Positions 3,126-45,997 are shown, counted from the first letter of the stretch. The stretch: DNA of 64,000 nt from Amoebophrya sp. A120 (GCA_905178155.1 CAJINV010000005.1:8306515-8370514); one strand, 5' to 3'. A program made the numbers and translations. Notes: generated by a model not told the origin, from the sequence alone.

Positions 3126-3214
3126 GAAGCTCTTTCTGATAGTACTTTTTACCGGTGGTTCTTGTGTCAGACTTCCTATAATATGATTTCAACGCTTTGT
3201 AGAAGGAAATCCAA

Positions 3215-4119: not shown

Positions 4120-5518
4120 TAGAAGGAAATCCAATTTTTATGTACTCTGCAGTTTAAGTTTAACACCTGATGACTTACATCAAATCTTATCAAACTAGTC
4201 CAAGAAGAAATTTTATACAAAATGCGTTATTTCAGCCCAGAAGAAGTTTTAGTTTCACCTGTTGATGTTGTGTTGCGCAATTTTTATCGGAAGAAAGAAA
4301 ATGGAAAATTGATGACCTTAGCAGAAGATGACATTGAAAAGGTCTCCGCGGCGTCCCGAGCTGCAAATGAAAAAAGTTTTTAGAAAGTTTGACTTACTTG
4401 TTCCTCTTGCATCGAATGTGAATTGAAACAAAGAAAAATACTGGTAATACCCAACAAAAAAGGATGAAAATGCACCCCTCTTGTACTTACTTACACCCCT
4501 TTGGTTTAAATTTCGACTTGCGCCAGGATTGATTCGCATGCCAGGTTCTTGATGATGTTATGTGTACAACAAAAATTATGTAAAGGCAATAGCTGTTGTG
4601 TTTATCACAGCCACTACAGGAGAAAATACAAGAAACGGCAAGAACTAAGCTATCTACCACTTCCACCAGCCTTCAATATTTTTTCTGTCACTTGCTGTTC
4701 GCCATCCGCAAGTAGTGAAGGTGGCCCGTAAAATGTTGATGAAAGCGATTTTCGATGACTATAATTGGGGTTTCTTGTGGATGCTCAGGGGGATGAGGTT
4801 GTAGTCATGGTGCAATCGTCTCTACTCTTCTTCACGCTCGAAGACTCATCTCTGTGGGGGTGCAGAGATTACTTATATCTATTCCAACAATTATATCGCG
4901 TTCGCGTAGGTGTACTTGCGTATCTTGTTCCGTTGTAGTTTTTCTCAGGGAAGAAAGATCAAGACATCGTCGTCGCAATAGTCGTCCTCGGTTGATGTAT
5001 ACTTATTCACGACGCAAGCAAGTAGTTTCTCTGCCGCGTTGATTGGTTTATTTATTTCTTGTTGCAGCTCGGGGTAGTCGTAGTCCTTGATAATATGGGG
5101 CGTGGTCGTCTTTGTGGTAGTGGTTGTGGTTCGTATCTGTGGTTCGTATCATCTGTGGGAAGTGGAATCCAAGCACACGGTTGATGACTTCCGTTGCAGG
5201 GGATCGGATTGACACTCATCGATTAGTGGCACGAACACTCAGGACAAGGACCACAACGAATCGATTTCGGTGGTTTCAAAGCAGGGATTCATTTGTAGTC
5301 GAAACCTTCTAGTTAGTTGCACGACCTGTTTAAGTACGTACTTATCATTCTGTCGCAATTTTTCATCTTTTTCTGCTCGCGAGTAGAGTCAGTCGCTTCG
5401 AAATGCTGAACTACACTATACGAGCTGTTTTTTAGAATGAAGGCTAGCTCCGTGGAGTATTCATTGTTGTAAACGTACTAAAGAGAATTGTTCTTCTGTT
5501 TGATTGAAAATAAACCGA

Positions 5519-8500
5519 ATGATCATGAGGCCTCACGTTCCGGCTTCGGTGAGGATGTCCCGGAGGTGGAAAAAAAGGTGTCCAAGAACAGTAGTTTCTG
5601 CACATAAAAAGGTAAAAAATCCACCGGCAGAAGTTGTTGTGCAGCGGCCACTACTGAAGAACAAGAAGCGACCTGAACAAGAATTTCTTCCTTTCTTCCC
5701 GCGACGTTCTTGGTTCCGGTCCTGTCTGCAAATTTTTGTCATTTCTGGGTCGACGTTCTTCCTGCTCTTCCTTGGTCTTTTCTCGTGCGAAAAAGACCAC
5801 GACGACCACGAGCAGCACCATAAGTCCTCCTCCTGCTCGTCCCAGCAACATTGGCAGCATGACGAGCGCCAAACTATCAAAAGCAAAAGGCTTCGCACAG
5901 CACAGCAGCAGGAGCTTTGTCATCTTCGTGACCTCGCGGGAGCAGTACCACAGCCCGCGAATTTTCAACATCTACTTCATCCTGGCGCTTCATTTAGTAC
6001 AATTTTCGTGGCGGCAGCGGCACTAGAAGGAACCACGTCAGGCCGCACCAGAGCAGATGCAGAAAGCAACTCTGTTGTGGAGGATGAAGATCATTCTGCA
6101 GGAATCAAACTGCAACAACTACACGACCGCACGACAGCACGAGGAGGGGCGCAGGCGCAGCATCAGCTTGAAGATGTAGATGGTGAAAACAACATTACGT
6201 CGGCACTTCAGATGAGAAGTAGAACGGTACTAGCGCAAGAAGGACCACAAGCAGAAGTAGACTTGGCAGAAGCCCTGGAGGTGGAACAAGCTGCAGGCAG
6301 TCCAACAGATGACCACGACCTGGTAAACTTTTCGCCCGAGGACGAGAATAGTGAGCCTCAAGATCATCTTCAAAGCGGTGCGGGAGGAGAGCAAGAGCAT
6401 GATGGAAGAAGTTCTTACCTAGATGATGGTGCTGGTGATGTTCTTGTACCACGGCTATTACCACAAGAACAAATCGACCTTGGTCGTGGTGGTGGTGGAG
6501 AAAAAAAGACTACTACTAAAAGCTCTACTTCTACTTCCCCCACCACAGGAGCTGCCGCTTCTCACATCATCAACTCTCGTCCACCCGGAAGTAGCAGTTC
6601 ATTTGTGGACGAGTTCTTCCTGGAGAGCGACGGCGGGTCCTGGACAACATCTTTAGTACCCGCAAGAACTAGTACACCAGCATCTTCTTCACCTAGCCCG
6701 GGCGAGGGCGGTGGTCCTCGGGATGAAGGATGTAGTGAAGAAGACGAAGCAGGTGAAACTGGAACCACAGGTGGAACAACTACAAGGTGTAGCGGAATTG
6801 TTACGCTGAAAGCTTCAACATCTTCTGTGGTGCCAGACGTACAACATCGTGCCTCCGGACAGCAGAAGCTGTCAACAAGAACTTTCGCTTCTTCTACTGC
6901 AGCACCTTCTACAACAAAAACTTCTCTCGCAAGGACTACAACTCCCGAGTCTTTTCTCCAAAAATTTTTCCGGCAGCGTCGAGAAAGCGAAAAGCAGAAA
7001 ACAAGTCGGAAAATTGGAAAGATGGCCAGGGAAGAAGTAGAGCATCAAGTGCAAGAACGCGACGGGTATCAAATGAAAAAATGTCTGGGTCTGGAAAGTT
7101 GCAACTTGTGTTGCTGCCTTTGGAAGGTAAAAAAAATCTGTATTGCATGACCAGCAAGAGGAGCTCAGTTTGTGCTACGCGGAGTGGGCGTGTCTCATGC
7201 GGAATACGCATCAGATTCAGAAGGCCCTTATAAAAATCTATGATGCAGCTTGGTCATGCATTACAGGCATCATGGGTTGTGCAGAATATGCATGACAAAC
7301 CTGGCAGTCTTCCAGACCCAGACATTTCTGCACTTGATAACGGGTCGTACAGTTCCAATGGCGACGAGGACGAGGATGAGGACGGGCACTTTTTGGGTAG
7401 AAAAGATCCGAAGAAGGTCGCCCTCGAGAAACGTCGGAAGGAGGCGAAGCGTCTCGCGCTGGAGGATTTTAAGAAGAAACCGAAGCGGCGCGTGTACGTG
7501 GCCAGCTACAACGTTCTGTCGCTGCTGCAACACCGCAGCTCGGGGGGTCCGGACCTGCGTTCCATGAAATACCAGCTGCCAGACAAAAACAAATTTTTTC
7601 AAAAGTTTCTTAACATAGCGGAAAAAGACTTGCGAGCTGCAAAGTCAACGGAGCGGCCTGCTGCGATGAAGAAACAGAAGGATTACCTCCGCCTGGAGTT
7701 GGCCTGGAAGGAATTTGTTAACGGCCAATTGTGGACGCGGTACCCACTTACCTACTCGCAGCTGAGGGCCGTCGAGGGGTTATCCTGAGTAAAAACGTCC
7801 CCACCCCATAGTCAAGATGGGGACTTTGCAACACAAATCTAGGAGTTTTGGGAGTCACGCATGACAAGTTGCAGTCCGTAGTGTAGTGCAGGGTAGCAAG
7901 TGCAGCCGCATCACAGATCCATCTGCGTATCCTGTTCACAGCATCACAAATTCCAAAACACGACTGGAAATGTCTACCATGGCTATGCGCATCACAAGTG
8001 TCGTTGTCATTGCAAATCCGCATGCACAACCGCAAACGCAAGCGCCACAACTTTTAGCTGCGCAAGAACAACAGCCGCCGGCCCAGATGATGGTAGGAAT
8101 ACGGATGGGGAGGCCACTTAACGCACTAGTAGCTCTACTGCATGAAGTGAACGAACAACTAGACCAAGGAGCAGAAGATGGCCGAGAACGAGAGATAGAC
8201 GATGAGGAGGAGGCGCGAGGCAACGCTGCAATCCTACCGAACCCCAAGTACTACATCAGGACTAAAGACATCAAGAGGACGATGCGAAGGGCGTGGAACA
8301 GCATCAGAAAATGTAAAGAAGAACGAGAACGCAAACGGATCCCGGAGGAGGCAGCGACGGGGAGAAGCTGCTGCAAGGGCGCCGATACGAAAAAGGCAGA
8401 CGAGGGTATAATGAACGGAAGTAGAGGTATGGTTTAAATAAAGACTGCTGTTCTATTTCATAGTAAGAAATTAAATTGTTGATCACATTCACTGTTAAGG

Positions 8501-11500
8501 GCAGGAGGATAGAAGAGGAGAAGCGAAAATATAAGGAAAAGGGAAAAGAGGCGCGAGATACGAACGGGTCTGCAAGCTCCATTCTATGTACTTAGCTGCC
8601 GCGACATAGAATGGTACCCGTCAGGCTCGGGGAGCTACTCTCTATGAAATTGATGCAGGGCACAGACTTCGAATTCACTTTCCATAAAACAAGGGCTGGA
8701 CGGGACAGGTACTGACGTCGAAGCGCTCTGCGCCTGAGACGTCACACATAGCAACAGAGATCAAACGGGCGCCCTGATTCGATAACTACGCCGATGTTGC
8801 TATCTGGGACCAACATGCAGTCGCATCGCACACCCGGGAGAAATATAGTCAGATCATCTAACAAGAAAAGGGAAAGACACGCAACTAGGAACGGCGCGCT
8901 TTTGTGCATCTACTTCTCATCGAGTCCAGCAGAATGAGCCAAGGACACTGCCACCAAATCGACAACGGCCGCCCCGGGGTGGTAAGTGTCGACCAGACCG
9001 ACGGCAACATATTCTGCTGGGTGTGGGGAGTAGATTTCCAAAAGAGGAGGGAAGTATGTCTGAATATGCATGAAAAGCATGGAGATAGTGACCCTGAGTT
9101 ACCTTCATTTTTTCCGAGGGAAAAGTTTTGCATGCGAAGGTAAAGCAGGCTCGCGCTGCAAATCAGTGGGAGGAATGGATAAGTTATAGATTCAGGAAAA
9201 TTCTTGGCTATTTGTATGATTTGCATCTCTATGTATGTAGCAACCTTCACGTGGTGAAGCGTCCGCCAAATTGTATGAAAATTGTATGAGAGATTCCTGT
9301 TGCTATAATTTCTGGCATCATTCTAGCGGCAAGAATTATACCAATCTAAACCTCCGCCGAAATGCAGAGAGACATACTCGAGGCAGGGCGTCTACCTCTT
9401 TGCGTGTAAGGGCACCCGGCCCCTTTTCCTTTTCCTCTTTTTTTTGCATGCGGGTAGCCGAATAGAGGCTGAGCCGCATGCAATCCAAATCCGATTTGCT
9501 TGCTGCTGCTATGTATGCTTTGTATGTTTCCTGCCGCCTTGTAGTCGTTATTAAGCACCTCGTCTTTGCCGCTCTTCGTTTGTTTTGTCCAAGGAGCTAG
9601 ATCGCAAATTCGTGCGCTCCATCGCCTATGAAAAATTAGATCTTCCCTGTGCCCGGTGTTGTCCCATGTAGATTTAGGTCTCTACCCTTTTACAGTCTTT
9701 TGTCGTCTCCTCGCGCTTAGTCTTACTTGATCCACGACTTGTAGCGCTAGTCGTTCCGCGGACCCCGCGTCCTCGCAGGGGCTTTTCTTTTTTTTTCCGC
9801 CTAGCCAGCGGGTTGTTGCTTGGGGGGGTGTCAGCTTTGCGTGGCAACTTTATATGCGTGCTTTATTCCGGTTTTGCATGACAAAGATTTATTGGCTTTA
9901 CTACAGCACCCTGCAGACTATCTGCTTTGACTGCGTAGAGGCAACCGGTGTAGTCTTCCTAGCGCACTAGTTTCGCCCGCTGCTACCGGGTCAGTAGTTA
10001 GAAGAATTCAGGTTGCGCGGTCTCTAAATGGTCCGTGGGGGTGGCTTAAGTTTTGACTGGGTGACTTGTTAGCTCTAGAAAAAGCTCGCTTTCGTATTTC
10101 TAAGAACAGAAATTTTGCATGACAGATTCAGGCTCAGCTAAGCCGGTGTAGATAGTATCCCCCCGCACTGCTATGCCCCCAAACACATCTTTCCGGACGC
10201 TGCAAGATGGAGAGATGTGGCGTGTGCCGCTGCTACCGGCTCGACACGTAAAGGAAAACGAATCCGCGCGCTCGGCTTGGTAGCTACCCCCATGCCGTTC
10301 GGGTTTTAGCTGCCACTGGCGTCATTGATCGGCGTCGCCAATATCTCCATCCCGATGATTTCCATCTCTACGTTTGTGTATGGTGCATAGGAGCTTGCTC
10401 CTTTTTGTGCCGCGGTGTCGGAGGTTTTGCAGCATGCACGCACAAACAGCATTTATGGAAGCGGAGGGGGGGGCGCGGGACCCCCATCAAGTCGTCGCGG
10501 CGCGAAGCCGCAAATCCTTGGGCCACGTCTACCACCAGAAGTATTCCGCCCGGGGGCCGCTCAATCAATAGGCGGGCGCGTCCTATGCGGTCGGGTTTGA
10601 AAGGTACAGTCCGTGCGCCCGCAACTGCCGCAAGGCATCGAATCCGGGGGGTCAATATAAATTTTTTGTAGTGTTTTTTGATGCAATGTAGTGACGATGA
10701 TTCCGTAGCCTGGTTAGCCCGTCCAAACAGGGCAAAGAGCGCAGCGGCTTCCTGCGCAGCGGCTTCCTGCGCAGCGGCTTCCTGCGCAGCGTCGGTTCGT
10801 GCACGTGTGTCGCTCTTCGTTCGTTGCCTTCAGGAGCTTGATCGTAAATTCGTACGCTCCTTCTGCTTTGAAAAATTTCGATCTTCCCATCTGCCCCCAT
10901 CTTCCGATGTAGATTTAGGTCTCTACCCTTTTACTTCTTCTCTCGTGTAGTGTTCGTTGTTGTTTTACCTGACCCGCCTGCTTAGCGCTAGCCCGCGTAG
11001 CCCGCATCCTCGCAGGGGCAGCTGTTTTTTTTTCCGCCTTGCCAGCGGAGTTTGTCGCGGGGAAGAATGCAGTCTGGGTTCAACCGTCCCTCCCTCCCGG
11101 GGTTCAACCGTCCCGCCCCTCCTCATGTAAATAGTGAAAAACTTCTCTTGCGTTTTTAGTCTAGTCCTTTTTCCGTAGATCGTTTTTTATGTTCGACCTT
11201 ATGGCATCGGCGGCTGTCGCATTATGCGCCTGGTGTAGCTGTTCAAAGTCCCTCGGCATAAGGGTCATAGTCTCGTATACAAGGCGCGCGGCAGCTAAAT
11301 GCGCGCTTGGTCGTTCTAGAAAATTAGTACCAACTGACCCATTATCGGCCTATAGTATTCGTGGACCACCCCTTTGAGGAAGCGGGTGCGTTCGGTTGAC
11401 CACTTTCATAGGTTGGTCATGGGGAATTTATTCCCCACCTGTCATGCATGTTGGGTCGCCGAAGTCTCTGTTTTGCATGGCGTGCTCGAGTACCGGGGTG

Positions 11501-14500
11501 CTGGAAGACGAATTAGTTGCTAATAGATAGAATTGAAAAATTTTACTACTCTTCGTGCAGCGGCTTCTGCGCATAACTTTAGTCTCGACCTTTAGCCCCG
11601 CCCCCCCAAAAACATTACATATTTTACTACGTCTCCATCTACGTCCCATCGTAGACGTCTGCCGCGGCTTTCGGCATTAGACGTTAACTAAAACGAGTGC
11701 GTTGCGCGGGTTTAGGGTTCCCCCGGTTTGTATCTCCCGAAGGCATGCTTTGAAGGGTTTAGGGTTTCGAAAGAATTTATACCGCATGACGCGTGACGGG
11801 AGCACGCAATGTAAGCGCAGCGGGCGGGTACCGTTCTCGCCGTAACACAATTCCAGAAAGAAAGAAAAGAAGTGAGCCCCTCCCGCAGGCAAAAAAAAAA
11901 AAAAATCTGCATGACAACTCTGGGGTGGGGACGTTTTTACACAGGATAGGGGTGTGTCAAGAGCTACCCGGCATCGATGACGCCCTGGCGCGTGCCCGAC
12001 AGTGCCGGTCTATGCATTGCAAATATGTCTGGGTCCTCTGGAAGATTCTGAGACCTGTCATGCACGTTTTGCATGAGCCATGATGTCTGTGATGCATGCC
12101 CTAGCATCACAGATTTTTTCAGGGTTTCTTGATGCCTATTCCGCATGACAAAGGTCCTCTCCGCGTTGCAAAAATTCCATTTCCTTTGCTGCCTATGCAA
12201 TACAGATCTTTTTGGAATCCACACGCAGCATCACAAGTTACATCCACCTTCCAGGCCCAGACATTTTTGCACTTGATACGGTCGTCTTGCTTTCGATCAC
12301 GTCACGGCGCCGGGAGGAAAGTATCTTCAGCATCCGGCCATGTGCACCTGGGACGCCGGGCATTGGATCGCGAAATCGCAGTTGAGGTTCCCGTATGAAA
12401 TGCAAAAATGTCTGGGTCTGGAAACTTGTGATGCTAAAATGTGCATGATGACAACACTTCCGAATGCAGTCCGGCATGACAACTTCCCAAAACGCTTTCT
12501 CATAGGCAATCCGCATGAGAAACTCCGTTTTTGCATGACAAAAGAGGCTGCGACTTTTGTTCGTTATGCAATACAGATTTTCTAGGTATGGAAAGCTAGC
12601 ATTACAAGTCCCAACCTTCCAGACCCAGACATTTTTACAATCTATATCCCGTTGGCGCTGCTGGGTGTGCAGGGCTGGCCCGATGTGAAAACCAGCGTCT
12701 TGCCGCAGCAAGTTTCGTATGGATTGCAAATATGTCTTGGTTTGGAAGAATGCAGATGTTTGTCATGCTTGTCTCACATGACTCTTGAACCTGGAATGCG
12801 TGAGCAGGAAAAGACCCTCTTACCTGTCATGCAAAAATGTAGTTTGTCTTTGTCATGCGGAAAGCTAAACACATAGGAGCCCAGAAACTTGTCATGCGTG
12901 GCTGCCTATTGCAGTGTTCCCACAATTCACAAATTAGCATCACAAGTTTCCAGACCCAGACATATTTGCAATGCATATGTCAAGGGGACGTTGGTCCTCG
13001 GCAGGGGAGCAGGAGCAGAGTTTGATATCAAGGAAAAAAACGTTGTTAGTGTAAGTTTGTGATGCGCAACATTCAAGCTGATTGCGTCTGTCATGCTTGG
13101 CATGCGTCGTAGGGTTCATCAAAGGGCGTTTTCAGATAGTATCTGCGCATGACAGGTTTTTGCTGTCATGCGAGAGATATTTGCCATGCTGTTCCTCCAA
13201 AAAAGTTACACCTACAATGTTTTTTTCTTGGATATTTGAGTCCGGATGCTTACAAGTACGCCCTGCCCTTCGCTCATCCGTTTTACGAGACCCGAGCGCG
13301 GTATGGGAGTGTCAGGATCGAAATCGTCAAAGTTGAAATAATCTGTAATGCAAAAGAGCGATACCAGCTGGATAGCCCAGTTTGCAAGTGGCGCATGACA
13401 AATTTTGGCAGCATGGAAATCCAATTTGTCCTGCTGTTTGAGCAGAGAAGACTGCTTTGCTATTTTAGCAGCTCTATCTTACACCCCAAACTGGCTTATA
13501 ATCGGCCTCAGTTGCCTGCTCTGCAAGACAGGCCCACTGCGTCTAGCATTTTATGCATCACAAACTATTTCAACGTTGACCATTTCAATCCTGACGCTTC
13601 CATACGAGGGCCAGGACCTGGCTCCTTGACGGACTCATATCAACCGCAAATTATGATATCTGGGTCTAGAGGAAGAATGCAAGTAAAGTTTGTCATGCTT
13701 GTCTCACATGACTCTTGAATCTGTAATGCATGAGCAGGAAAGCAGCCTCTCACCTGTCATGCGAAAACGCAGTTTGTCATGCGGGAAGCGAAACACATAG
13801 GAGCTCAGAAACTTGTCATGCGCGGCTGCGTAACGAAGTGCGCCCACCATTCACAAACTAGCATCACAAGTTTCCAGACCCAGACATGTTTGCAGGTCAT
13901 AACCCAACGCCAAGGATCCGCAGCGCGAGTATGGATTGCAAATATCCCTGGATGTCTGGAAGGTTGCAACTTGTGATGCTGTCTCTGCATTCCAAAGAAA
14001 TGTGTATTGCATGACCAGCAAGAGAGGTCCTGTTTGTGCTACATGGAGAGGGCGTTTCGCATGCGGAATAGGTATCAGGAAACCCTCTAAAGATCTGTGA
14101 TGCTAGGTTATGCATTACGGGCGTCATGGGTCGTGTAAAATCTACATGACAAGTCTTCCATATTTTCAGAACCAGACATATTTGCATTTCATAGCGAAGA
14201 CGGCAACCGATTGGCAAAGTGGCAACGATTGGCAAAGTTTCAACCCGATCGGAACGCGCGGTGGCAAATTGGCAACGCGCACAGGTCGTGCGCCATCTTG
14301 CTGGACCTCGACACGTTGATGCGGGGCGGGGAATATCAAATGCAAATATGTCTGGGTCTGGAAGATTGCAAGGTTTATTGTCATCCACATTTTGCATGAC
14401 CCGTGATGTTTGTGATGTATGCCCCAGCATCACAAATTTTTTGCGGGCATCTTGACGCCTATCCCGCATGAGAAATCCCCCTATGTCGCGGAGCAAAAAC

Positions 14501-17500
14501 TGGACGCCTCTTGCTGCTCATGCAATACAGATTTTTTTCCCTTCCAAAAATAGCATCACAAGTTCTTGCATTCGTCCGGACCCAGTAGACATTTTTGCAA
14601 TACATAGGGAAATGTCGAACGAGGGGGAGAGGGAGTACAACCCCGACGAGGCGGACGAGGGCGAGGGCCGGCCCGGTATCACGAGGAAAAATCCCCCCTC
14701 CCCATATCAAAAGGAAGTTTCTGATGCTGGATTTGCGTATACAGATCAGGTTTGTCTTGCAGTAGAGGACAGCAGGCTCCTGCCAAGCCTGAGTAGAGAG
14801 CTTTTGGCCTAGGCGCTTAGCATGAGAAACGTCTATGCTGTAGGCCCAGTAGCATCACAAACCGCCTGCATAATGCGGTAGAGCCTGTGGAGTTGTCTTC
14901 TTGCAAGACAGACGTGATTTGTGGCCTCAAATCAGCAAGACAGCGCACCTGTTCGATATGGGGAGGGGGGATTTTTCCTCTCAATACCCGGCGTCGGCTC
15001 GCAGGAGCAGGGGCGGAAGAGAAACAAAAGCCGCGATAAATTTTACCTGGACGAGGAGATTCTGCGTTTTGACACGCACGCAGATTTAGGGTTTGACGGA
15101 GTGGACGAAGACGCGGCGCACAAGCAGCACTTTGTGGAGAAAAACCTCGTTTGCCTCACGGCGATCTACGTCCGGAGGCTGAAACTGGTGTTTGCCAGCG
15201 CAGAGCTTTATGGGCGGAACAGCAATTACGACTGGGAGCACGAGGTCGAGCATATCCTGCTTCCTCCCAAGTTCACGGACACGGAGGTGCGGAAACGAAT
15301 GGAGGCCGACGCGAAGAAGTACAAACTTCGCACGTTTCTGAACAAGGCCGAACCCCCAAACGCAGTCGACAAGGAAAAATGGATCCGAGAAAATGTGCCG
15401 CAGGACAATGCGCGGGACGCGATGCAAACGGTGTGTACGTACCTAGCCAGGATGCTGGAGAAGCGACTGGGAGGTGTAGAAGATACAACTAAGCGGATGG
15501 AAAATAAGAAGCGAGATGCCTCAAGTAATATGCGAGTTAGTGCGAGCAAGGCAGCAGCGAAAACTACGGCGGACGGAGGTCAACGCGAGGTTGTTGACCC
15601 TGGTATATCAAATGCAAAAATGTCTGGGTCTGGAAGACGACAAGTTTGTCATGCGCATTTTCCATGATCATCTACGATGTCTGTTATGCATGCCCTAGCA
15701 TCACAGATTTTTTGGGCGCTTATCGATGCGCATCCCGCATGACAAATGCCCTATCCGTGTAGCCAAATTTGGCTGCTCTTGCTGCTCGTGCAATACAGAT
15801 TTTTTTTTAGCATCCCAATGCAGCATCACAAGTTGCAACCTTCCAGACCCAGACGTATTTGCAGTCCAAATGGCGACGGGTGGTACAATTCGGAGGAGAT
15901 CGATGGAAACGCTGAAACGTTCCGAACGAGTGGTTATAACACGGACGGAGCGGGCGAGGAGGCCGGGGGGTTGTATGACCTGCCAGCACAAAGGGAGAAG
16001 AAGAAGACGAAGCGGGGCGGTGGGTCCTTTTCCGCATTCGTCGAAAAGAGGACTTGGAAACAGAAAAACACCATTTTCGGAAGCAGAAGAACCAGCAAGA
16101 AGCCGAGTGGTAAAGAGCAAGAGCGTATGCATCGCAAGTATGTCTGGGTCTGGAAACTTGTGATGCTACAGTGTGGATGATGGAAACACTTCCGAATGCA
16201 GCCAAGCATAAGAACACTCCAGAACGCTTTCTCATGCGCAGCCCGCATGAGAAACTGCGTTTTTGTATGACAGAATAGGCTGCGGCTTTTGTTGGTCATG
16301 CAACACGACAAATCCCACAGGAATGTAAGACCAGCATTACAAGTTCGAACTTCCCCCCAGACACAGACATATTCGCAGTGGATAGAGCGACGTGGCAAAA
16401 ATCGGCACCATGAGCACCACCGCAGAAAGAGCAGAAAGGGGAAAAGGACTATTGTAAGGAAAAATGCTCCCATCCCAGAACTTGGAAGCATTTGTATTGC
16501 AAACTCTTCCAATGGAAATATTTGCCCTCTTGCATGTATCAGCATCACAATCGTGAATAAAGCAACCTCTTGCATGTATTTTCAATCGTGAATAAAGCAA
16601 AAATTTGCATTGCAAAAGACCCCAGCAAGAGCACTGCTTGTCATGCAAGCGATGCTGTATACCTATACGACTAAAATCTGCATCAGAAAAATTCATAGTC
16701 CTTTCATTGGCAAAAAGTTTTCATTTGGAAACTTCGCATCACAAATTGTCGCAACTTGCGGGGTGGGGGCATTTTTCACTGCAATAAGGCCTGCCGGAAG
16801 TTCCTCCCGAGACCGGCGTGGCAGCAGAAGCCGACGAGAGGGGGATTCCCGTCGAGAGCGCGGGCGTACAAGCCGACCTTCTGAGCGGCGGAGAAAGCTG
16901 CGGCCCCCGCCGGATAAGATTGCGCTAGATGGCAAGTTATCAAATGCAAAAATGTCTGGGTCTGGAATGTTGCCGGCTTTGTCATGCATATTCTGCATGA
17001 CCCAGGATGTCTGTAATGCACGACCTAGCATCACAGATTTTTGGCGGGCTTCCTGATGCCTACTCCGCATGACAAATGCCCTCCCCGCGTAGCACAAACT
17101 AGCCTCCTTCTGCTGGTCATGCAATACAGATTTTTTTAGAATCCAAAGTTAGCATCACAAGTTCCAACCTTCCAGACCCAGACACTTTTACACTTGATAC
17201 AAGTACATGGTGGGGCCGCGATCTTTTGGACCACAGAATATGAAATGCAAAAGTGTCTGGGTCTGGAAGCTTGTAATGCTGGGCGGCGTCTCATGATGAG
17301 GCTACGAATGCTGGCTCAGCATGACAAGTTTCTGAGCTCCTAGGTGTTGCCTATTCTGCATGACAAACTGCGCGTCTGCATCACAGAAAAGCGTAGCTCT
17401 TGGGCAACGTGCATGACAGATTTAAACATCATGCCAGACAAGCATGACAAACATGAATTCTTCCAGACCCAGACATTTTTACACTTGATACAGAACAAAG

Positions 17501-20500
17501 TGCAACCAAACTACAGCACTGCCGCAAGATATGGAAGTGTCAGAACCGAAATTGACAAAATCGAAAAACTTGTGATGCACAAAATCGATGCCAGTTAGAC
17601 CCACAGTTTGTAGTCGGCGCATGACAAATTCTCTTCGTCCTGGAAGCGAATCTGTCATGCGGTTTAGGGCAAAAGAGCTGCCTTCTGTCATGCTAGTCAG
17701 CAGCCCAACACTTATTCCTTGCCAGGACTACAATCCGCCTTCCTTGCATCCTCTGCAACAGAGTCGCTTTTTGCGTAGCATTTTACGCATTACAGAGCAT
17801 TTCGATTTTGTCGATTTCGATCCTGACACTCCCATACATGAAACAGCCAGGCGGCGAATGCGAACCAAGACCAAGGGCGGCAGGCGACTGCACGGGAGCA
17901 GCAAGATGCGGGCGACGGCGCAGGCGGGGAAGAAAATACCGGGTGGCGCATATCCTGAGTAAAAGCGTGGTCTCCATACCAGAGTTGTCATGCAAATGCG
18001 CAATAACAGGAACATTTGTAATGCGCAGCTCCATGAGAAAAGGAATTTCTAATCGTGATTTGGAATTTGTAATGCTGTAAACAGGATGTTAAAATGGCTT
18101 TCTCATGCGGCTTCTCTTACCAATCAGCACTACACTGCAGAGGGAACAAAGAACTTGTCATGCACAGCTCCCAAAGCTACTTGGAGACTTGTGTTGCTAG
18201 ATTCCCAACTTGACTATGGGGTGTGGGCCCCGTTCTTTTTGCTTAGGATAGCGCAGACAAGTGAGCAGAATCATCCTCGCAGTAGACTCGCGCGCGGAAG
18301 ACCGGTATGAAATGCAAATATGTCTGGGTCTGGAAGATTCTAAACTTGTGATGCTGTGTCTGGATTCTAAAAAAATTTGTATTGCATGACCAGCAAGAGG
18401 ACTCCAGTTTGTGCCACGCGGATAGGACATTTCTCATGCGGTAAGGGCATCGCAAAGCCCTCGAAAAAGCTGTGATGCTAGAGCATGCATCACAGACATC
18501 ATAGGCCATTCAAAATATGCATGACAAACCAGGCAATCTTCCAGACCCGGACATTTTTGCATTTGATAACCGGTGGGCGATTGACCAGCTTTTCGCACCA
18601 AGTCGAGACAGCGTATTCGAAGTGGGATATTGTGAGGAAAAATCCCCCCTCCCCATACCAAAGCGGGACTCTTCTGAAAATTTGTGATGCTGATTTGAGG
18701 CCACAAATCGTCTCTGTATTGCACGGAGAGAAATCCAAGAACCCCGCCGCGTTCTGCAGGCAATTTGTAATGCTGTTTGGCCAACGGAGGATATGCCGGC
18801 CTTGCTAGGCGCCTACACCAAAACGTCCCTAGTCCGGCTTTGTATAATCTATCTGGAGTCCTCTGCTGCAAGACAAATTCGATTTGTGTACACAGATCCT
18901 GCATCACAGATTTCCAGTTCGATACGGGGAGGGGGGATTTTTCCTTCTGATATCGGAAAAGGTTCCGGGCTTTTTTTTTACCTGGACGCAGGGAACAACG
19001 AGCTGGGGAGCTGTTTATCAAATGCAAATATCCCTGGATGTCTGGAACATTCTAAACTTGTGATGCTGTCTTTCGATTCTAAAAAAGATTTGTATTGCAT
19101 GACCAGCAAGAGGACTCCAGTTTGTGCCACACGGAGAGGGCATTTCTGATGCGGTAGAGGTATGATCGCAAACCGCTCTAAAAATCTGTGATGCTACGGC
19201 ATGCATCACAGACATCATGGGTCATGGAAAATATGCATGACAAATCTAGTAGAAGTCTTCCAGGCCCAGACAGTTTTGCATTTGATACTGTTGCAAGGGC
19301 GACAATAAGGTCGCGAACGGGCAACGAGTATCCTGTGCAAAAGTACCGTACTCGTATTGCAATCATGCATTACATCAAATCTTTTTTTTTAAAGGTAAAT
19401 TCGCATTACAAATTTTACTTCTCATGCTGAGAATTTGTAATGCATTTATTCGAGTGCGATTACGATACTTTTGCAGTTCATAACAAGTCATGGACGCAGC
19501 TGAGTACGGAAACAGGTATGCAAGTTGGACAGGAGGAGGTCAAGGTAGGGGGTATCAATTGCAAAAATGTCTGGGTCTGGAAGATTGCCAGGTTTGTCAT
19601 GCATATTTTGAATGACCGATGATGTCTGTGATGCATGCCCTAGCGTCACAGATTTTCAGCGGACTTTGTGATGCCTCTACCGCATGAGAAGTGCCCTCTT
19701 CACGTAACACAAACTGGAGTCCTTTTGCTGGTCATGCAATGCAAATTTTTTTAGAATCCAGAGACAGCATTACAAGTTTAGAATCTTCCAGACCCAGACA
19801 TTTTTACATTTGGTAGGGGGCAACCAGAGCCCACTCCCCTCCAGCCGCGGCTTGGAACGACATATCCGATGTAAAAACGTCCCCACCCCATAGTCAAGAT
19901 GGGGTCTCGGCTAGACAAATCCACAAGCTTTGGCTGTTTTGCATGACAGATCTCAGCTCGTCGTGTAGTGCTGTTTGAGCTATTTCAGCAGCATCACATA
20001 TCTAGTACATCATGCTGATTGGAGCATGGCAAATTCCAAAACACGACTGGAAAACCCTTTTCATGGGGCTCCGCATGAGAAACATTTTCAGCATGCAGAC
20101 TTGCACGACAGCTCTGGGGTGGGAACGTTTTTACACAGGATACGACGGGACCGGACTTTATCTTCGATACGGGCCTACATGACCCCAGATTCTATTGCAA
20201 GGAAAAATCCCCCCTCCCCATATCGAAAACGGAATTTCTGATGTTGTATTTGAGTATACAAATCGCCTTGGATTGCTAGAAGGCCAAGTGCCGCAGTTGT
20301 GCCGTCGTTTGCAGGCAACTTGTCATGCTGTTACCCACGTCCCAGCTGCCTCCTATCATGCTGAAGATGCAAGGCTTTCCCACGACGGCCAGTACTACAG
20401 TCCGCGTCTTTTGCCTTGTAGCATGGCAAAGCACCCCACAAATCTGCGTCACAGATTCCAAGAGACTAGTGATAGCGTTACTCCATTGCCGCCTTCGCGA

Positions 20501-21207
20501 TATTTTTTTAGCGGACCCCGCACGAGAACCCTGATGCGTTTCCCGCTTAGTACTGAGCCTGCTTGACTAACGTAGCAAACACATAGACACCCTTCGCTTC
20601 GGCACACCTCACCTGCCTAGTCGCCCCTAGGTAGGTGCAGGAATTTTCTGTGTGGGCTTTTTGTGCTGAATTATTCCAACAGGGGCTGCGTTTTTTTTTT
20701 CTGCCTTGCCAGCAGAGTATGTTTGTATGGGGGGGAATTGACGGAAGTGGCGCGAGACCTTGGTGACGGAGCAGACGACAAGAGCGGAAATGGTACAAAG
20801 CAAAAAAAAAGATGGTGTACACGCGCACTGCTTAACTGTGTGAAAGGTGTCGGCCCTGTGTAACCTGCTGCGGCAGGCAGGTGAATTCGTAGAACTGCAT
20901 CACATGTTAAGTAACGCCCACCGGCCTCCTAGATTAGTGATGAATTTATATGCGTTTTCAGTGTGGGGCCCAATGAAAAAAAAAAAAAAAAAAATCTGCG
21001 TCGAAGATTTCCGGTTTGATATGGGGAGGGGGGATTTTTCCTTGTGATCGATTCGGGGGCGTCACAGCAGAGCAGGGTGCGGCACAGCGAACCCAATTGG
21101 TGCCCGAGATCGAGAATGCGAATTTCGCTCCTCGGGAGTTGCAATCTTATTTTTCTGACCACAAACCCATTATGAAGCCGGTGTATGTGATAGATGACAC
21201 TGAGTAG
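5519..21207 (+). CDS. Gene 2, large protein with N-terminal hydrophobic segment, 25 TIR introns; function unknown
   Basis: First exon 5519-7066 contains LQIFVISGSTFFLLFLGLFSC. Elements at 7067-7339, 7781-11948, 12011-12278, 12394-12646, 12718-12977, 13026-13234, 13302-13604, 13638-13901, 13930-14193, 14334-14606, 14677-14986, 15606-15870, 16126-16384, 16450-16786, 16938-17199, 17239-17490, 17530-17836, 17951-18250, 18306-18568, 18628-18952, 19016-19287, 19329-19482, 19553-19815, 19863-20142, 20193-21049. The spliced frame is open to ..KPVYVIDDTE* (21207). RVYVASYNVLS weakly resembles the first motif of endonuclease/exonuclease/phosphatase domains. Confidence 0.85.
8025..11902 (+). mobile_element. 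Poly(A)-tailed retro-insert nested in family-B introner 7781-11948
   Basis: Host element breaks after AAATCCGCATG (8014-8024) and resumes after an A-tract at AAATCTGCATG (11903-11913). Host TSD GGGGT closes at 11949-11953. The insert starts in an open frame (to 8437); no reverse transcriptase motif recognised. Confidence 0.85.
10739..10791. repeat. 15-bp tandem repeat (GCGCAGCGGCTTCCT) x3.5
   Basis: Directly visible inside the nested insert. Confidence 0.9.
13026..13234. mobile_element. Introner family F (3 copies, about 207 bp), representative copy
   Basis: TIR TATCNANGAAAAAAACGTTGTTAGTGTAA; TSD TTTGA. Others at 29963 and 30264 (reverse orientation). Confidence 0.9.
13302..13604. mobile_element. 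Introner family G (3 copies, about 300-320 bp), representative copy
   Basis: TIR TATGGRAGTGTCAGGATCGAAATCGNCAAA. Others at 17530 and 41553. Confidence 0.9.
14677..14986. mobile_element. Introner family D (11 copies, about 310-330 bp), representative copy
   Basis: TIR TATNNNNAGGAAAAATCCCCCCTCCCCATATC / GATATGGGGAGGGGGGATTTTTCCNNNNNATA; TSD CCCGG. Other starts: 18628, 20193, 27290, 27775, 29154, 30562, 35260, 35952, 43118 (degenerate), 56745. Confidence 0.95.
16450..16786. mobile_element. Introner family H (3 copies, about 305-340 bp), representative copy
   Basis: TIR TATTRYAANGAAAAATGCYCCCACCCC. Others at 26930 and 29516. Confidence 0.88.
19329..19482. mobile_element. Introner family C (8 copies, about 145-190 bp), representative copy
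   Basis: TIR TATNNNNTGCAAAAGTATCGTACT / AGTRCGATACTTTTGCANNNNATA. Other starts: 5, 22709, 23581, 26570, 32873, 59485, 60673. Confidence 0.93.
20451..20991 (+). mobile_element. Poly(A)-tailed retro-insert nested in family-D introner 20193-21049
   Basis: Duplication AAATCTGCGTC at 20440-20450 and 20992-21002, with an A-tract immediately before the second copy. Confidence 0.85.
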
Positions 21208-31300: not shown

Positions 31301-34300
31301 CCTATTATGCTGATTGGAGGGAGCATTTTACAAATTCCAAAACACGGCTTCGAGCAAATGCTTCTCATGGTGCTCCGCATGAGAAACCTTTTTAGCGTGC
31401 AGATTTGCATGACAGCTATCGGGTGGAGATGTTTTCACACAGGATACAGCTCATTTTTCAGCACGGGGAGAAGATGCGACAAGAAGAGTACATGCGCCAA
31501 GAGGAATATCCGAGAAAAAAACTATGTGAGTGTAAGTCTGTGATGCAGAAAATGCAAAACTGTTTACACTTGTCATGCTGCTCTTCCGTACAAAGTTACA
31601 CTTACACAGTTTTTTTGCTGGATACAGAACAGAGAAGCAGCCGAAAAAATTCGAAGTCGCAAAACAGCGTACCGACCACCGGGGGTTTCGGGCTGCCGTC
31701 CATGGAAAAAATGCAGGCGGATAGGGCGAAGTATTTTAATTTGTTTTTTTCAAAGACTGTAAGAAGTACTTTACCAATTATGGCCTCACTGCTGGCAAAA
31801 GATGTTGTTCTTGGCTTGTTCATCTTGCAGTGAAAATAGTAGTTGTCGTCCGGCGGAAGATGTTCTTCCAGTGGGTTTTTTTTGTGAATATAGAGTACGT
31901 TTTATGTTGGTCAAAAATTTTGAAACAGGATGGACCAGCAGCAGCAGCAGCAGCAGACCCAGCAAGCTCAACAGCAGCAACAGGCCGCCCAGCAGCAGCA
32001 GCAAGCCGGGAAGACAAAATGGATTCCCTACTCCACCTATGCATTGCAAATATGTCTGGATCTGGAAAGATGCAACTTGTCATGCTCAATCTGGATCGTG
32101 CCAAAAATTTGTGTTGTATGATCAGAAAGAGATGTCCACTTTTAAACAAGTTCAGATGGAGTTTCTCATGCAGGATAGGCATGACAGAGACCGTACAGAG
32201 TCTGTCATGCTAGGCCCCGCATTCCAGACCTCATGGGTCATGGAAAACCTGCATGACAAGTTTACACTCTTCCAGACCCCGACATATTTGCATTTGATGC
32301 CACCGAAGACGGCAACGTCTTCTACTACAGCGAACAAACGGGCGAATCGGTGTGGGAACTGCCCGCAAACGCAGAAGTCGACTACAGTAACTGCGAAAAC
32401 GACACTAATGTCGAGCAGCAACGGCAGAAAGAGGAGGACGAGTACTACCAACAGTACGGGTACGCAAACCGGCAAGCCTACGAAGACGCTTGGTACAAGG
32501 CGGAGGCAGAGAAACAGGCGAAAGAGCAACAGAAAATAAAGGAACAAAAGCAGGACCCTATCCTGAGTAAAAACGTCCCCACACCAGAGGCAAGATGGGG
32601 ATTTTGCAACACAAGCCTAGAAGCTTTGGGAGTCACGCATGACAAATTGCACTCCGTAGTGCAGTGCAGGATAGCAAGTGCAGCCGCATCACAGATTCAT
32701 CTGCTTATCCTGTTCATAGCATCACAAATTCCAAAACACGATTGGAAATGTTTACCATAGGTATGCGCATCACAAATGTCCTTGCCATTGCAAATCTGCA
32801 TGACAACTCTTGGGTGGGGACGTTTTTCCTCAGGATAGACCCGTTTTACCACTTGCGACAGCACGAGCAGCATATCCTGTGCAAAAGCATCTTCGCACTT
32901 ACTCGTGATGATTGCAGGCATGCATGCATGACAAATTTCCTTTCCAAGGTGAAACAGCACGACAAATTCAATTTTTCATGCTGAGAACATTTGTAATGCA
33001 ATTTATACTAGATAGTGCGATGCTTTTGCAATTCATACAGCAACAGGCACAACAGCAAGCCGAGTGGGCGGAGTGGTACTGCTGTAAATGAGGTTTTATT
33101 TTGGTAAATGCATGGATCGTGTGTGCGCTATGCATGACAGGCAGCTGTTGCGTTGCGCTGCCTCGCATGACAAAGGCAAGTTTCTTCGAAAATATAATCT
33201 ACAGGTACAAGCAATATCAAGCGTGGTACGCCGGGAGTGTGGGTGGACAACAGCACCAACTTATGGGAATGAAATATATACTTCCTGTCATGAGGATGAG
33301 CTTTTGTTTAAATAGCATTTTATGCATGACAAAACCGCTCTGCAGTCATGCAGACTAGGACAGCAAATGACAAGTTTAGTATTTCATCCCCATATTGCAC
33401 AACCAGCAGCAAAACAATCCGTATGGAAATAACAGCAGCCAGCCCTTCGTTGGCAACCCCTACCAAAACCAGCAAAATACCAATGCGGGCTACGGAGCAC
33501 AACAGCAACGGGGACCACACCACAATGCAAACTCCCCCGGTATGGCGTTCTCAAGCGTTACATTCTCAACTGTTACATGAATTTGTAATGCAAGGCTAGC
33601 ACAGGCGAGAGAGAGAACCTTGCGCGTCTTGCATTACAGGTTTGGTGCGGATTACAGTGCTATTTAGCCATCCGGGAATTTGTCATGCGAAGCAGCTCGA
33701 TCGTCTGGCGGGTCATGGTCATTTTGCATGACAAATCGTGTAACAGTTGAGGATGTAACGTTTGAGAACCCCATACCCGGCGGGCCACAGCATCAGCAGA
33801 ACCAGCGACCTCCCACTGGGGGAACCCCGAATTTGCCGCCCGGGGTGCGCTATCAAATGCAAAAGTGTCTGGGTCTGGAAGAATGCGCGATTTACATTAA
33901 CATTGCTTGACTTCCGGGTTCTGGTACGGCATACCCCCAGCGAGAGGTGAACTCGACAGGTGACCTCGACAGGTGACCTTGACAGGTGACCTTGACCGGT
34001 GACCTAGACAGGTGACTTGGACAGGTGACCTGTACAGGTGGCCGCGACAGGTGACGACGACAGGCGAGGCGAGAGGATAAATCACAGGCGAGGCCAGCGC
34101 CTACGCTCGTGTCGTATGTTATTGACGTGAAAAGCAAACATTTGCGACACAGAAAATGAAAAAGAGAAAAGCGCAAAAAAAAAAACTGCGACGCAGAACA
34201 TGAAAAAGATAAGAGCGCAAAAACACAAACTGCCCCCACACACACACAAAGAAGTCTCTGCGTCGCGGTGCAAAAATATTAAAAAAGTGCTTTCTCTTTG

Positions 34301-36658
34301 CAATGCACGCCCAGGGGGAGACGGCTGCTTACTTCGCCTCCGGAATCGGGAATGAGTTGCAGCCGGGCAGAGATAAGTATGTCCTCTGCTTCTATTTCTG
34401 TTTTGTCTTGCAAAATTAATGCAGGGCACCTAATTCATCCTTTTGCCAATAGCGCTTAGCGCACTAAGCCACTATGCGCGCGCCTGGTGAGAGGCGAGGG
34501 GCGGACGCTGTCCGCACCGATGCCGAGCACCCTTCCCCCACTAGCGCTTCGCGCACTAAGCCACTATGCGCGCGCCTGGTGTGAGGCGAGGGGCGGACGC
34601 TGTCCGGCCCGATGCCGAACACCCTTCCCCCACTAGCGTTTCGCGCACTAAGCCACTATGCGCGCGCCTGGTGTGAGGCGAGGGGCGGACGCTGTCCGCC
34701 CCGATGGCGAACACCCTTCCCCCACTAGCGTTTCGCGCACTAAGCCACTATGCGCGCGCCTGGTGTGAGGCGAGGGGCGGACGCTGTCCGCCCCGATGGC
34801 GAACACCCTTCCCCCGCTAGCGTTTCGCGCACTAAGCCACTATGCGCGCGCCTGGTGTGAGGCGAGGGGCGGACGCTGTCCGCCCCGATGGCGAACACCC
34901 TGCCCCCACTAGCGCCACTAGGGACGGGGACAAGGCCCCAGCGTGGGGACCCTGTCCCCACGCGTGGGTCTTGTTTGTCATGCAGCTTTTCCATGACCCA
35001 TGACATGAGGTCTGGAATGCAGGACCTAGCATGACAGATTCTGTGCGATCTCTCTCATGCCTATCCTGCATGAGAAACTCCCTCCCGACTTAGTCAAAAC
35101 TGGACGACTTTTGGTAATCTATCACGCAACACAGATTTTTGCACGTTTTCAGATCTAGCATGACAAGTTGCATTCTTCCAGACCCAGACATTTTTACATT
35201 TGATATGCGCGACCCTAAGTTGAAGCCCATTTTGGACCCACAGTTTGAGGACCGAGCGGTATGGCAAGGAAAAATCCTCCCTCCTCATATTGAAGACGCA
35301 CCTTCTGAAAATTTGTGATGCGGATTTGTGACCACAAATCCTGTCTGTCTTGCGAGAAGGCAAAGCCAGGCTCTCTGACACGCTATGCAGGCGATTTGTA
35401 ATGCTGTAAGGACTGCAGGGCAGCCGTCTACCATGCTAGGCGCCTACACCAAAGAGCCTCTATCTAGGTTGGCGATCAGCGTGCAGTCCTCTACTGCAAC
35501 ACAAATCTGATTTGTGTACGCAAATCCAGCATCACGGATTTCCTTTTCGATATGGGAAGGGAGAGCTTTTCCTTTTGATAAGCGGTTTATCTGATGAAAG
35601 CGGGGATCTTGAAGGAGATGGAACTCATGGTCCAGAATAAAACCTCGATAGAGGATCGGAAGAAGGCGTTGCGAATATGCAACGAAAAAAGTGTTTACAG
35701 TGATACATCCTGTTGCGGAACAAGCAAGACAGACAACCTTTGTCATGCTAGAAATGCTTGCGGCTCTCCGATTTCGTACGTGTTTATTTCCCTTATGATC
35801 GCTGCATTGCATATTTTCTCTGTCATGTTGAACAAACTTGTGTTGCTGAAATTACAACAAAAAGTGTGTTGTAAAACACTTTTTTCTTAGGATAGCAGAA
35901 ACTGAAATTTCAGTGGCACCCGGACAAAAATCCCGAAGACCCGGAGGTGGCTATCAACATGAAAAATCCCCCCTCCCCATACTCAAAGGGAGATTTGTTT
36001 AGCATCATTTGCGATCACAAATCACGTTGCCATGCCAGAATGGAAGATATGCGGATTGTAGGGGTGGCTGGCGTAGGAAAGCATTGCGTCTTCAGCATGA
36101 CAGGAAGCAACTGGAAGTGGGCAACAGCATGACAAATCGCCTGCAAACGAGGCCGCAACTGCCTCTCTTGGCCTTCTAGGAAAACAAGTCGACTTGTGTA
36201 CTCAAACACAGCAACACAAATTTCGTTTGCGATATGGGGAGGGGGGATTTTTTCTCACAATAGTGGCCAAGTCGGTGTTTCAGTTCGTGGAGGAATGCAA
36301 AATTTGGTTTTTGCTCGACGAAGAGGAATATGCATTGCAGATATCGATCTGGGTCTGGAAGAGCCCGAACTTGTGATGCTAGCTCTCGAGCAGACAAAAA
36401 TCTGTATTGCGTGAATGCCAAACGCTGTCCACTTTTGGCTACACAAATAGCGGACTTTTCATGCGCAGCACGCATTAAGAATAAGAACAAGAAGCCTCCG
36501 CAAATAATAAACCTGTAATGCTTTGCGTGCATTCCTGGCCATCCATGTGTTCCAGAAGATGCATGACATTCTAGTGCACTCTTCCAGACCCAGACATATT
36601 TGCATTTGATAAAGGGGGCGAAGGGGGGACGAGTGTCGGGGGCAAGAGTCCGATTTGA
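22338..36658 (+). CDS. Gene 3, WW-domain plus C-terminal J-domain (DnaJ-like) protein with possible N-myristoylation; 38 TIR introns and 2 GT-AG introns
   Basis: Starts MGAAASS. Elements at 22400-22654, 22709-22862, 22969-23221, 23261-23547, 23581-23725, 23803-24081, 24145-24421, 24459-24670, 24730-24997, 25054-25354, 25394-25607, 25648-25926, 25974-26225, 26267-26480, 26570-26720, 26930-27234, 27290-27603, 27775-28100, 28249-28507, 28559-28764, 28799-29033, 29154-29474, 29516-29837, 29963-30168, 30264-30470, 30562-30875, 31159-31446, 31507-31624, 32038-32299, 32559-32837, 32873-33037, 33262-33394, 33541-33775, 33851-35205, 35260-35580, 35676-35894, 35952-36262, 36329-36611. Inferred GT-AG introns at 31731-31928 and 33076-33204. 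Splicing rebuilds KWIPYSTEDGNVFYYSEQTGESVWELP (WW) and RKKALRKLKFQWHPDKNPEDPEVAKSVFQFVEE (J domain). Could be two genes split near 31833/31930. Confidence 0.85.
24459..24670. mobile_element. Introner family I (3 copies, about 210 bp), representative copy
   Basis: TIR TATCNCAAGAAAAAACTGTTTCACTGT; TSD CAAAT. Others at 28559 and 61604. Confidence 0.9.
25394..25607. mobile_element. Introner family J (3 copies, about 210-220 bp), representative copy
   Basis: TIR TATNNCAGGAAAAAAGYGTYACAGTTACACA; TSD GAGGT. Others at 35676 and 61895. Confidence 0.88.
28799..29033. mobile_element. Introner family K (2 copies, 235 bp, opposite orientations)
   Basis: TIR TATGGSGTTCTCAARCGTTACATTCTCAAC; TSD TGCCA. Second copy 33541-33775, TSD CCCGG. 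Confidence 0.92.
31507..31624. mobile_element. Singleton short introner (118 bp)
   Basis: TATCCGAGAAAAAAACTATGTGAGTGTAA ... TTACACTTACACAGTTTTTTTGCTGGATA. TSD diverged (AGGAA/CAGAA); frame restored. Confidence 0.8.
33262..33394. mobile_element. Singleton short introner (133 bp)
   Basis: TIR TATGGGAATGAAATA / TATTTCATCCCCATA. TSD not recognisable, but removing the element plus 5 nt restores the frame. Confidence 0.78.
33944..34066. repeat. 13-bp tandem repeat (GACAGGTGACCTN)n, about 9 degenerate units
   Basis: Directly visible. Confidence 0.9.
34459..34914. repeat. 92-bp tandem repeat x5
   Basis: GCACTAAGCCAC recurs at 34461, 34553, 34645, 34737, 34829. Units contain the hairpin GGGGCGGAC-GCT-GTCCGCCCC. 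Confidence 0.95.
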
Positions 36659-44300: not shown

Positions 44301-45284
44301 GGCAACGGAGGACGAGCAGGCGAAGATTACGTGGGAGGCGCTGGTTGGTGGAAAAGTTGGCGGTAATCAAGGAAAAAGGAGCCAGTCACGATGTGCCTTT
44401 CGCGTTTTTTATTTTTTGCCACGGCATTGGTATTTGAATTTCGTTTGTCATCAAGATATGCATTTGTTGTGTCTGTGTGTATAGGAAGTCGATGAAAACA
44501 ACATTATATATAATTGTCTTTGTCGATGTTTTGTACCATGACGCCTTGATGCAGTCGCTTCTGTAGAAGTGAGATGGCAAGCCGCGAAAAGCGTTTCCTC
44601 AGCACGGGATATCCTGAGTAAAAACATCCCCACACCAGGGTCAAGATGGGGATTTTGCAACACAAACCTAGAACTTTTGGGGGTCACGCATCACAAGTTG
44701 CAGTCCGTAGTGTAGCGCAGGTTCGCAAGGCCAGCTGCATCAGAAATCCATCTGCTCATCCTGTTTACAGCATTACAAATTCCAAAACACGACTAAAATA
44801 AAATGCCTCTCCTGGCGATGCGCATTACAAATGTTCCTGTCATTGCAAATCTGCATGACAACTCTGGTGTGGGGACGTTTTTACTCAGGATACGGGAACT
44901 GGCGTGCTTATATAGCATGAGCGATCCTCGTGATGAAGTTTCTTTCTTGCATATGAGAGTGCACAACTCACCCTCCCCCTCATTTGTAGGGCATGAGGAG
45001 CAATACAAGCGTCGGCAAGAGTGCAGGCTTTGCATGACGAATTCGCCCCGGATGGTAGGGTTGTTTGGGCTGCCAGAATCTGTCATGCAAAGAAGTGCCA
45101 CGAGGCAAACGGAAAGGCGCGTTTGGTATTCAACATGACAAATGAAGAGGGGGAGGGGGAGTTGTGCACCCTCATATTGCATACCTGGCATCGAGAAGCC
45201 TCGGGTCTGGAGGGGAGAGATGCGCCCGCCAACAGGGAATGGGGATTAGGTATCCTGGGTAAAAACGTCTCCATCTTCCGGTAG
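37981..45284 (+). CDS. Gene 4, putative secreted/surface protein (paralogue A); 3' end appears truncated
   Basis: Signal-peptide-like start MATKTAAALLCAYLVLFDGPIGFLFVSAVA. Elements at 38926-39198, 39255-39533, 41160-41421, 41553-41872, 42222-42525, 43118-43447, 43676-43943, 44610-44892, 44952-45176, and a half element from 45251. Inferred GT-AG introns at 40053-40151, 40251-40776 and 44363-44566. I could not resolve the frame between about 42670 and 43090 (frameshift or unseen exons). Confidence 0.65.
39255..39533. mobile_element. Introner family L (2 copies at the homologous site of genes 4 and 5)
   Basis: TIR TATGCCAAGAAAAA / TTTTCTTGGCATA. Second copy 53281-53567. Confidence 0.88.
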
Positions 45285-45997
45285 TTGTCATGCGAACTTC
45301 TTTTTTTCGTAGGCGTACTATCTAGTTTGTTTTCATGGCTGCACTTTGATTTTTTCTTTCTGTTTTTGAGTAAGTGTAAGTGACTGCTTTTTTCGATTAA
45401 GTACCTGAGGTTGCTCGGCTTTCACTTTGACATGATAATCTTGAGTTTTTTTGAACATAGTTCCTTCTGACGTAATTTTTTCACCACGATCGATTCGCTA
45501 TTAGCTTTTCTCTTTTGTTTTTGTCGATGTATGTCATCCTACTTTCTCCAAGCGTTTCGGTTTGACTTTCAAGACTCCCAACTTACTCATAAGCCTACTT
45601 TCATTCGTGCTTCCCCTTTCCAAGTAAGTACTGCGCGAGACACTGTTCTTCACTTCCACAGCATGTAGCAAATCGATAAAATAAAAAATCCACAAACATG
45701 ATCAAGAGAGCACGAATAAAAGCAGAAGAAACCGCTCTTCCCTCTCAAGCTCTACGGCATTCCTTCTTTTTTTCGCACACTTTCGAAAACAGAAACTCAA
45801 AAAAGAATAGAGCTTTTCTAAATTTTTCAAACATTTTTTTCGCTAACAACCAACATTCATATCAGTTTTAATACGTTTTTTGCAGATGCAAACGCCGCCC
45901 TATTCATTTTGTCACTGCAAGGTGGAAGCAGCTTCGTGTCACAGCCCCCGTCGCAGTTCGCAGGTGAAAAATCTATCACCGAAGCGCCACGATAAGC

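Follow-up and report, generated by a model that had tools for sequence, protein, structure and literature searches.

In a stretch of 64,000 nucleotides from Amoebophrya sp. A120 (GCA_905178155.1 CAJINV010000005.1:8306515-8370514; hereafter the window), two poly(A)-tailed inserts interrupt two different introners at what appears to be the same site, which raises the question whether a retrotransposon can use introners as its regular landing place. The original prediction was that one sequence-specific non-LTR family parasitizes introners by recognizing the word AAATCYGCRT. The parallel duplications are confirmed here, and targeting of a site is supported in part, on the basis of few events: a fixed site and orientation within a repeat were found in all five events with clear junctions, next to one doubtful miss.

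The window is eukaryotic DNA crowded with elements of 200-340 bp, which carry inverted repeats and 5-bp direct repeats. BLAST-based introner annotation gave 104 hits comprising 23,015 bases, or 39% of the window outside inserts, and 73 of 83 candidate introners have near-perfect TAT/ATA ends together with at least 4/5 repeat matches. The host elements show TAT-N7-AAA inverted repeats and short direct repeats, i.e., the definition of A120 introners; portions of PMC7789003 describe this signature as inverted repeats starting with TAT, followed by seven variable bases and As, plus short direct repeats. GCATNACA occurs 298 times in the window, 276 times in annotated introners and 22 times outside. 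Window-wide, the outermost GCATNACA-type box mostly lies 32-33 or 40-45 bp from the introner ends, depending on the family. Other inserts were also seen. A 1.1-kb insert (33887-34971) with 13-bp and 92-bp tandem arrays, lacking a tail and an evident duplication, lies 36 bp inside a family-A introner end. A 3-kb insert (46917-49954) has imperfectly inverted ends as well as dispersed repeats rich in GC, and interrupts one member of a locally duplicated gene pair (37051-39629 vs. 46038-53663). Outside introners, an insert of about 0.9 kb (3200-4135, or 3215-4120 in another delimitation) has a tail of the (TAA)n type and is flanked by a duplication of 15 bp without mismatch; a Pfam search of it gave no hits. 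It probably belongs to another non-LTR family and offers a natural control that is not targeted.

Table 1. Coordinates of the two inserts, their host introners and associated features in the window.
Feature	Position	Strand	Remark
Family-B introner enlarged by insert 1	7781..11948	+	4168 bp
Left duplication, insert 1	8014..8030	+	11-bp core, extendable to 16
Insert 1	8031..11905	+	3.9-kb modular element, A15 tail
Right duplication, insert 1	11903..11918	+	46 bp from introner end
Family-D TIR introner split by insert 2	20193..21049	+	flanking 5-bp repeat 20188-20192, 21050-21054
Left target-site duplication, insert 2	20440..20459	+	about 20 bp; 11 bp form the core
Insert 2 ("family S")	20460..20975	+	5'-truncated, non-coding, multicopy element
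Hairpin kept between insert 2 and the L001 copy	20610..20637	+	predicted fold
Motif common to both insert families	20680..20716	+	CAGGGGC, T tract, 5-bp hairpin with CUWGCCA loop
A19 tail of insert 2	20976..20994	+	last three As also open the right duplication
Right duplication, insert 2	20992..21012	+	starts 58 bp from introner end
Orphan 43-bp family-B end after A-rich run near insert-1 site	45251..45310	-	partner half absent in window

The flanks of insert 2 (20199-20457 and 20992-21040) together align to an uninterrupted family-D copy, and AAATCTGCGTC is found at 20440-20450 and again at 20992-21002, where the A tail runs into the right copy. On the left, the duplication follows the uninterrupted family-D copy at 27546 through ACAGATT; on the right, its start precedes the outermost GCATNACA-type box by 6 bp. 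Both copies agree over about 20 bp with two mismatches and one indel. Insert 1 has the same orientation: its flanks (7781-8030 and 11903-11948) align to uninterrupted family-B copies, AAATC(C/T)GCATG is present at 8014 and 11903, and the A15 run occupies 11891-11905. Its duplication can be read as 16 bp with one mismatch and one extra base, or as 11 bp plus microhomology. Since uninterrupted relatives carry the site once, the repeats flanking both inserts are true duplications. Thus, the predicted parallel duplications in a family-D and a family-B introner, in the same orientation and with the A tail meeting AAA, were confirmed at both sites, but the predicted length of 11 bp describes only their core.

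Inserts 1 and 2 share only a motif of about 37 bp (up to about 40 bp) and the A tail. Because there is no BLAST similarity beyond these, they are two families instead of the single one proposed. The motif itself, claimed at 20680, 9776 and 11013, stood up: these are the only matches in the window, all within the two inserts, and none of 100 shuffles matched. All 25 cells of its hairpin are paired, with one compensatory pair, which is not significant as 55 of 500 shuffles scored as high. The hairpin kept between insert 2 and its L001 relative (see below) has two compensatory pairs among 42 predicted pairs in an alignment of two sequences only. Scans of viral and prokaryotic collections with the shared motif gave no match in either. 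Rfam and tRNA scans of the window, where insert 2 is truncated at its 5' end, gave no hits. An internal T9-10 tract on the sense strand argues against Pol III, making transcription by this polymerase unlikely. A spliced-leader-like word was not found at the insert heads, and an HDV-like descriptor had no hits in inserts 1, 2 and the L001 insert and one implausible hit in L002. The idea of a ribozyme was dropped, as a single loose hammerhead-core match (in L001) and an empty Rfam search were all it yielded. A raw RNA run (X9) contained only 139 partly matching reads and is uninformative on expression.

A metagenome collection was scanned once with the internal motif, resulting in three loci of one assembly which contains the same introner families. 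L001 was thereby recovered without reference to the target site. Its insert of about 680 nt is 71-73% identical to insert 2 over 329-344 nt, has the same 3' end and is about 200 nt longer on the 5' side. The host is a family-A introner of an RPB1 gene, the duplication is a perfect 19 bp (2548-2566 and 3258-3276), and the target AAA-TAT-GCATGACA is in the same register as in the window inserts. Over 3.4 kb, L002 and L003 hardly differ; they were counted once and contribute two events with one junction each. In the first, an A15 tail meets a family-B introner near its opposite end (TTGC/AAAGTCCCC) and is followed by GTCCCCATC, without the downstream box. In the second, an insert-1-type unit starts inside the family-D end of a kinase gene with a 4-base spacer. 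Relatives of insert 1 at these loci are 76% identical over 1003 nt. In total, three events show both junctions and two show one, and the tails at the four 3' junctions read A19, A15, A9GA7 and A15. That unrelated introner families (A, B and D) were each entered independently is supported.

In a DNA-like run, 63 contigs with many variants matched insert 2, and its summed depth was 300-3100 in most bins compared to 41-55 for unique contigs, a figure which is not a copy number. Compared outside 20964-21004, these contigs yielded no additional target sites. Three contigs continue 5' of 20467 with L001-like sequence (compared by eye), in one contig the motif is followed by the variant seen in L001, with one difference in 30 (by eye), and loose contig ends fall on insert 2 at 20467 and 20482 (among 6 of 11 loose ends listed). 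Since contigs depart from the window sequence on the 5' side of 20467 and become L001-like, insert 2 is 5'-truncated and begins near 20460. We conclude that it is a dispersed multicopy element with another locus copy in L001. The poly(A) tail, duplications of about 20, 16 (or 11) and 19 bp, 5' truncation and many copies are hallmarks of non-LTR elements, and this anatomy gives good support to retrotransposition primed at the poly(A) tail (target-primed reverse transcription), with loss of the 5' part.

The coding capacity of the inserts was assessed as well. Six-frame translation of insert 2 revealed no open frame of note. Insert 1 is composed of a 136-aa orphan frame (8027-8437), without homologues in protein searches, two units of about 245 bp (9567-9811 and 10808-11048; 76% identical), each ending in the shared motif, and two TTTAGGG motifs (11711 and 11758), which we take to be a telomere-type repeat. 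The alignment of both units has no compensatory pairs (0/42). The endonuclease envisaged in the original prediction was not found: a Pfam search of 14 frames from insert 1 and of 12 read-through frames detected neither a reverse transcriptase nor an endonuclease. Two stretches near 8790-9050, one YAD-like and one RPG-like, resembled a decayed reverse transcriptase or endonuclease by eye but were rejected, as the Pfam read-through search was empty. Because neither enzyme was found, the inserts are treated as non-autonomous or truncated. TTTAGGG words recur in insert-1-type units, also at 516, 3742 and 3889 of L002. Further, an insert-1-type unit followed by a CAAGAA microsatellite occupies 2461-4370 of L003 and 2461-4130 of L002; an ATG-initiated, low-complexity frame of 113 aa comes after the microsatellite in L003, and L002 diverges at the same point. 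The insert-1-type unit possibly serves as a module of promoters or 5' UTRs which is also present at 3' ends.

What all five events have in common is their place. The distances from AAA to the tail-facing introner end are 46 bp for insert 1, 58 bp for insert 2, 56 bp for L001, 47 bp for the L002 tail and an inferred 58-59 bp for the L002 head, i.e., 46-47 bp in family B and 56-59 bp in families A and D. This is the site of the outermost GCATNACA box or, in one case, the site where the box would lie. All five are in the sense of the host gene and at the downstream intron end, regardless of introner orientation. The five junctions share nothing beyond C/AAA, and the box is absent in one. To judge this regularity, only the two window events were used to define distance classes (46±2 and 58±2, i.e., 44-48 and 56-60 bp), and AAA sites of this window, with 71 clean introners of the 83 candidates, served as background. 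The classes hold 65 of the 823 AAA sites in clean introners (7.9%) and 65 of the 2214 in the window. Both outside 3' junctions fall within them (p = 0.006 given an introner; p = 0.0009 overall), and adding the half-event and counting the orphan of Table 1 as a miss gives three of four (p = 0.002). This orphan is about 49 bp from the end, outside the distance class and antisense; it is possibly an old sixth event. By themselves, the two window events are weak to modest evidence, as random pairs of AAA sites agree at 6 or more of the 8 bases that come next with p = 0.0098 (p = 0.021 for sites in introners).

Based on these results, we lean slightly towards the view that insert 2 was copied in trans by a LINE which homes in on a fixed position within introners, 46-58 bases from their ends. 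The alternative closest to the original prediction is a strictly sequence-specific endonuclease, Tx1-like or restriction-like, which reads AAA-N3-GCATNACA and for which the end distance is a by-product. All three events with two junctions indeed have AAA-N3-box, a word present at only 36 of 2214 AAA sites, and target choice is mainly set by the endonuclease according to portions of PMC4494074. Moreover, 22 of 30 intronic AAA-N3-box sites are within 62 bp of an end regardless, so that box and position are confounded. However, the A15 junction of L002/L003 lacks the box, the family-D half-event has a spacer of four bases, and the spacers differ elsewhere (TCT, TCC, TAT). The preference for position over sequence rests on this one box-less junction, whose 5' end is unseen, and the evidence favours position; we regard strict reading of the box as rather unlikely. 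Correspondingly, the claimed overlap of the target with the motif common to introners holds for the three complete events but not for the A15 junction, and strict AAATCYGCRT specificity is not supported, given the TAT spacer of L001 and the same junction. L001, unselected for its target, lands at AAA-N3-GCATGACA, and one outside junction is without the box. What stands of the predicted sequence-specific non-LTR introner parasite is retrotransposition, the three introner families and a non-random site, but not the strict word.

All sites are survivors of selection, and an ordinary L1-type element inserting at any TTT/R could leave a similar pattern if exonic hits were purged and splicing-safe sense insertions near the 3' end remained. 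Introners take up a large part of the window (see above), and five sense insertions at the downstream intron end can be produced by selection in a sample this small. However, two classes 5 bp wide, with 7.9% of intronic AAA sites, are not readily selected, since interior sites spare the terminal repeats too, and the different, TAA-tailed insert persists outside introners (3215-4120). We therefore consider survivorship improbable as an explanation. That the inserts were carried along by a mobile introner, or arose as artefacts of assembly or recombination, is very improbable and largely refuted by L001: the near-identity of L002 and L003 shows that duplicated or redundant assembly exists, but copies of family S occupy two different introner families, differ at the 5' end and each have a duplication of their own, and contigs of two runs span the left junctions with no differences (7946-8720 in X1; 20343-20523 in X3).

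The consequences for the host gene can be followed for insert 1. One contig of run X3, guessed to be RNA, looks like a transcript; it aligns to 5437-7061, 7340-7774, 14987-15604 and 15875-16119 and leaves 590 nt between 7774 and 14987, the joint itself not being displayed. After removing the 4168-bp element and the eight following introners with one repeat each, the predicted exons sum to exactly 590, and the predicted spliced host frame is open for 1065 codons. Thus, the enlarged family-B introner is likely spliced out as one unit together with insert 1. For insert 2, removal of the family-D introner together with one repeat in silico leaves the host frame open as well; among the displayed contigs, no transcript contig bridging this introner was seen.

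Returning to copying in trans at a fixed spot, a loosely specific endonuclease would open a nick in the bottom strand (TTT/G), whose Ts would pair with the A tail. The spot would be set mainly by position, probably via some protein or structural feature of the introner end; the box would assist without being essential. With the terminal repeats intact, the host would remove introner and passenger together, and insertion would thereby be close to harmless, as suggested by the one transcript contig. The element RNA would probably come from Pol II or from host read-through, and the stem, U tract and hairpin common to both families are a candidate cis signal. The retrotransposon likely aims at these introns, so that its copies would be spliced from host messages. 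More tentatively, and on balance doubtful, a LINE lineage and several non-coding passengers may have evolved to dock on an introner-end protein or structure common to all Amoebophrya introners. Landing just within the downstream end and in the sense of the host, they would be transcribed along with host genes and then spliced out. If this is true, they are hyperparasites, for which the self-removing transposon introns offer a genome-wide safe harbour, and insert footprints would map the binding place of the introner machinery.

More generally, coding genes, RPB1 among them, can take up insertions at almost no cost, and the landing spot marks a feature common to all A120 introners, which is a testable handle on the mobilizing or splicing machinery. 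It also bears on annotation. In the accessible parts of supplement file 8 of PMC12130899 (rows 557, 588 and 605), A120 families 16, 6 and 2 have LINE peptide hits and are classed as TIR DNA or unknown. Nested LINEs could be the cause of these hits, as we infer, and some published "LINE-like" introner families of this genome may be TIR introners with nested retroelements. No report of introner-targeting retroelements was found in the literature searched, which left out most subscription journals and covered supplements in part. Retroelements nested at a fixed introner place are not described in portions of PMC7789003 and PMC12130899, and no LINE or SINE text occurs in the accessible supplement of PMC7789003. 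Three motif words are absent from the accessible part of supplement file 3 of PMC12130899, and two are absent from 13 of 14 files, in which long cells are incomplete.

Known systems with a DNA transposon as landing site provide the closest comparison. Transposons are among the known targets of non-LTR elements (PMC4640811, in part), and the Tx1 clade is described as found in animals in portions of PMC4494074, on which the following rests. SINEU/Tx1-Mar of crocodilians is alike in being non-autonomous and in having a fixed position and orientation in an abundant non-autonomous DNA transposon, Mariner-N4_AMi; the expected duplication of SINEU-3 is 16 bp, and truncated copies show independent insertion. 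Unlike in SINEU, neither an snRNA-derived head (Rfam, window) nor a partner LINE was found here. Similarly, Tx1 (Tx1L) of Xenopus inserts into Tx1D, and Tx1-9_AMi into three Harbinger families, whose sequences are about 90% identical around the site, whereas the introner targets share a short box and the distance to the end. The target of SINEU/Tx1-Mar is one transposon family and its relatives (PMC4494074, in part), whereas three families with unrelated bodies, probably spliced as introns of coding genes, are used here. Thus, known targeting of DNA transposons in animals concerns one family or near-identical families, while the elements described here enter unrelated families that are at the same time introns.
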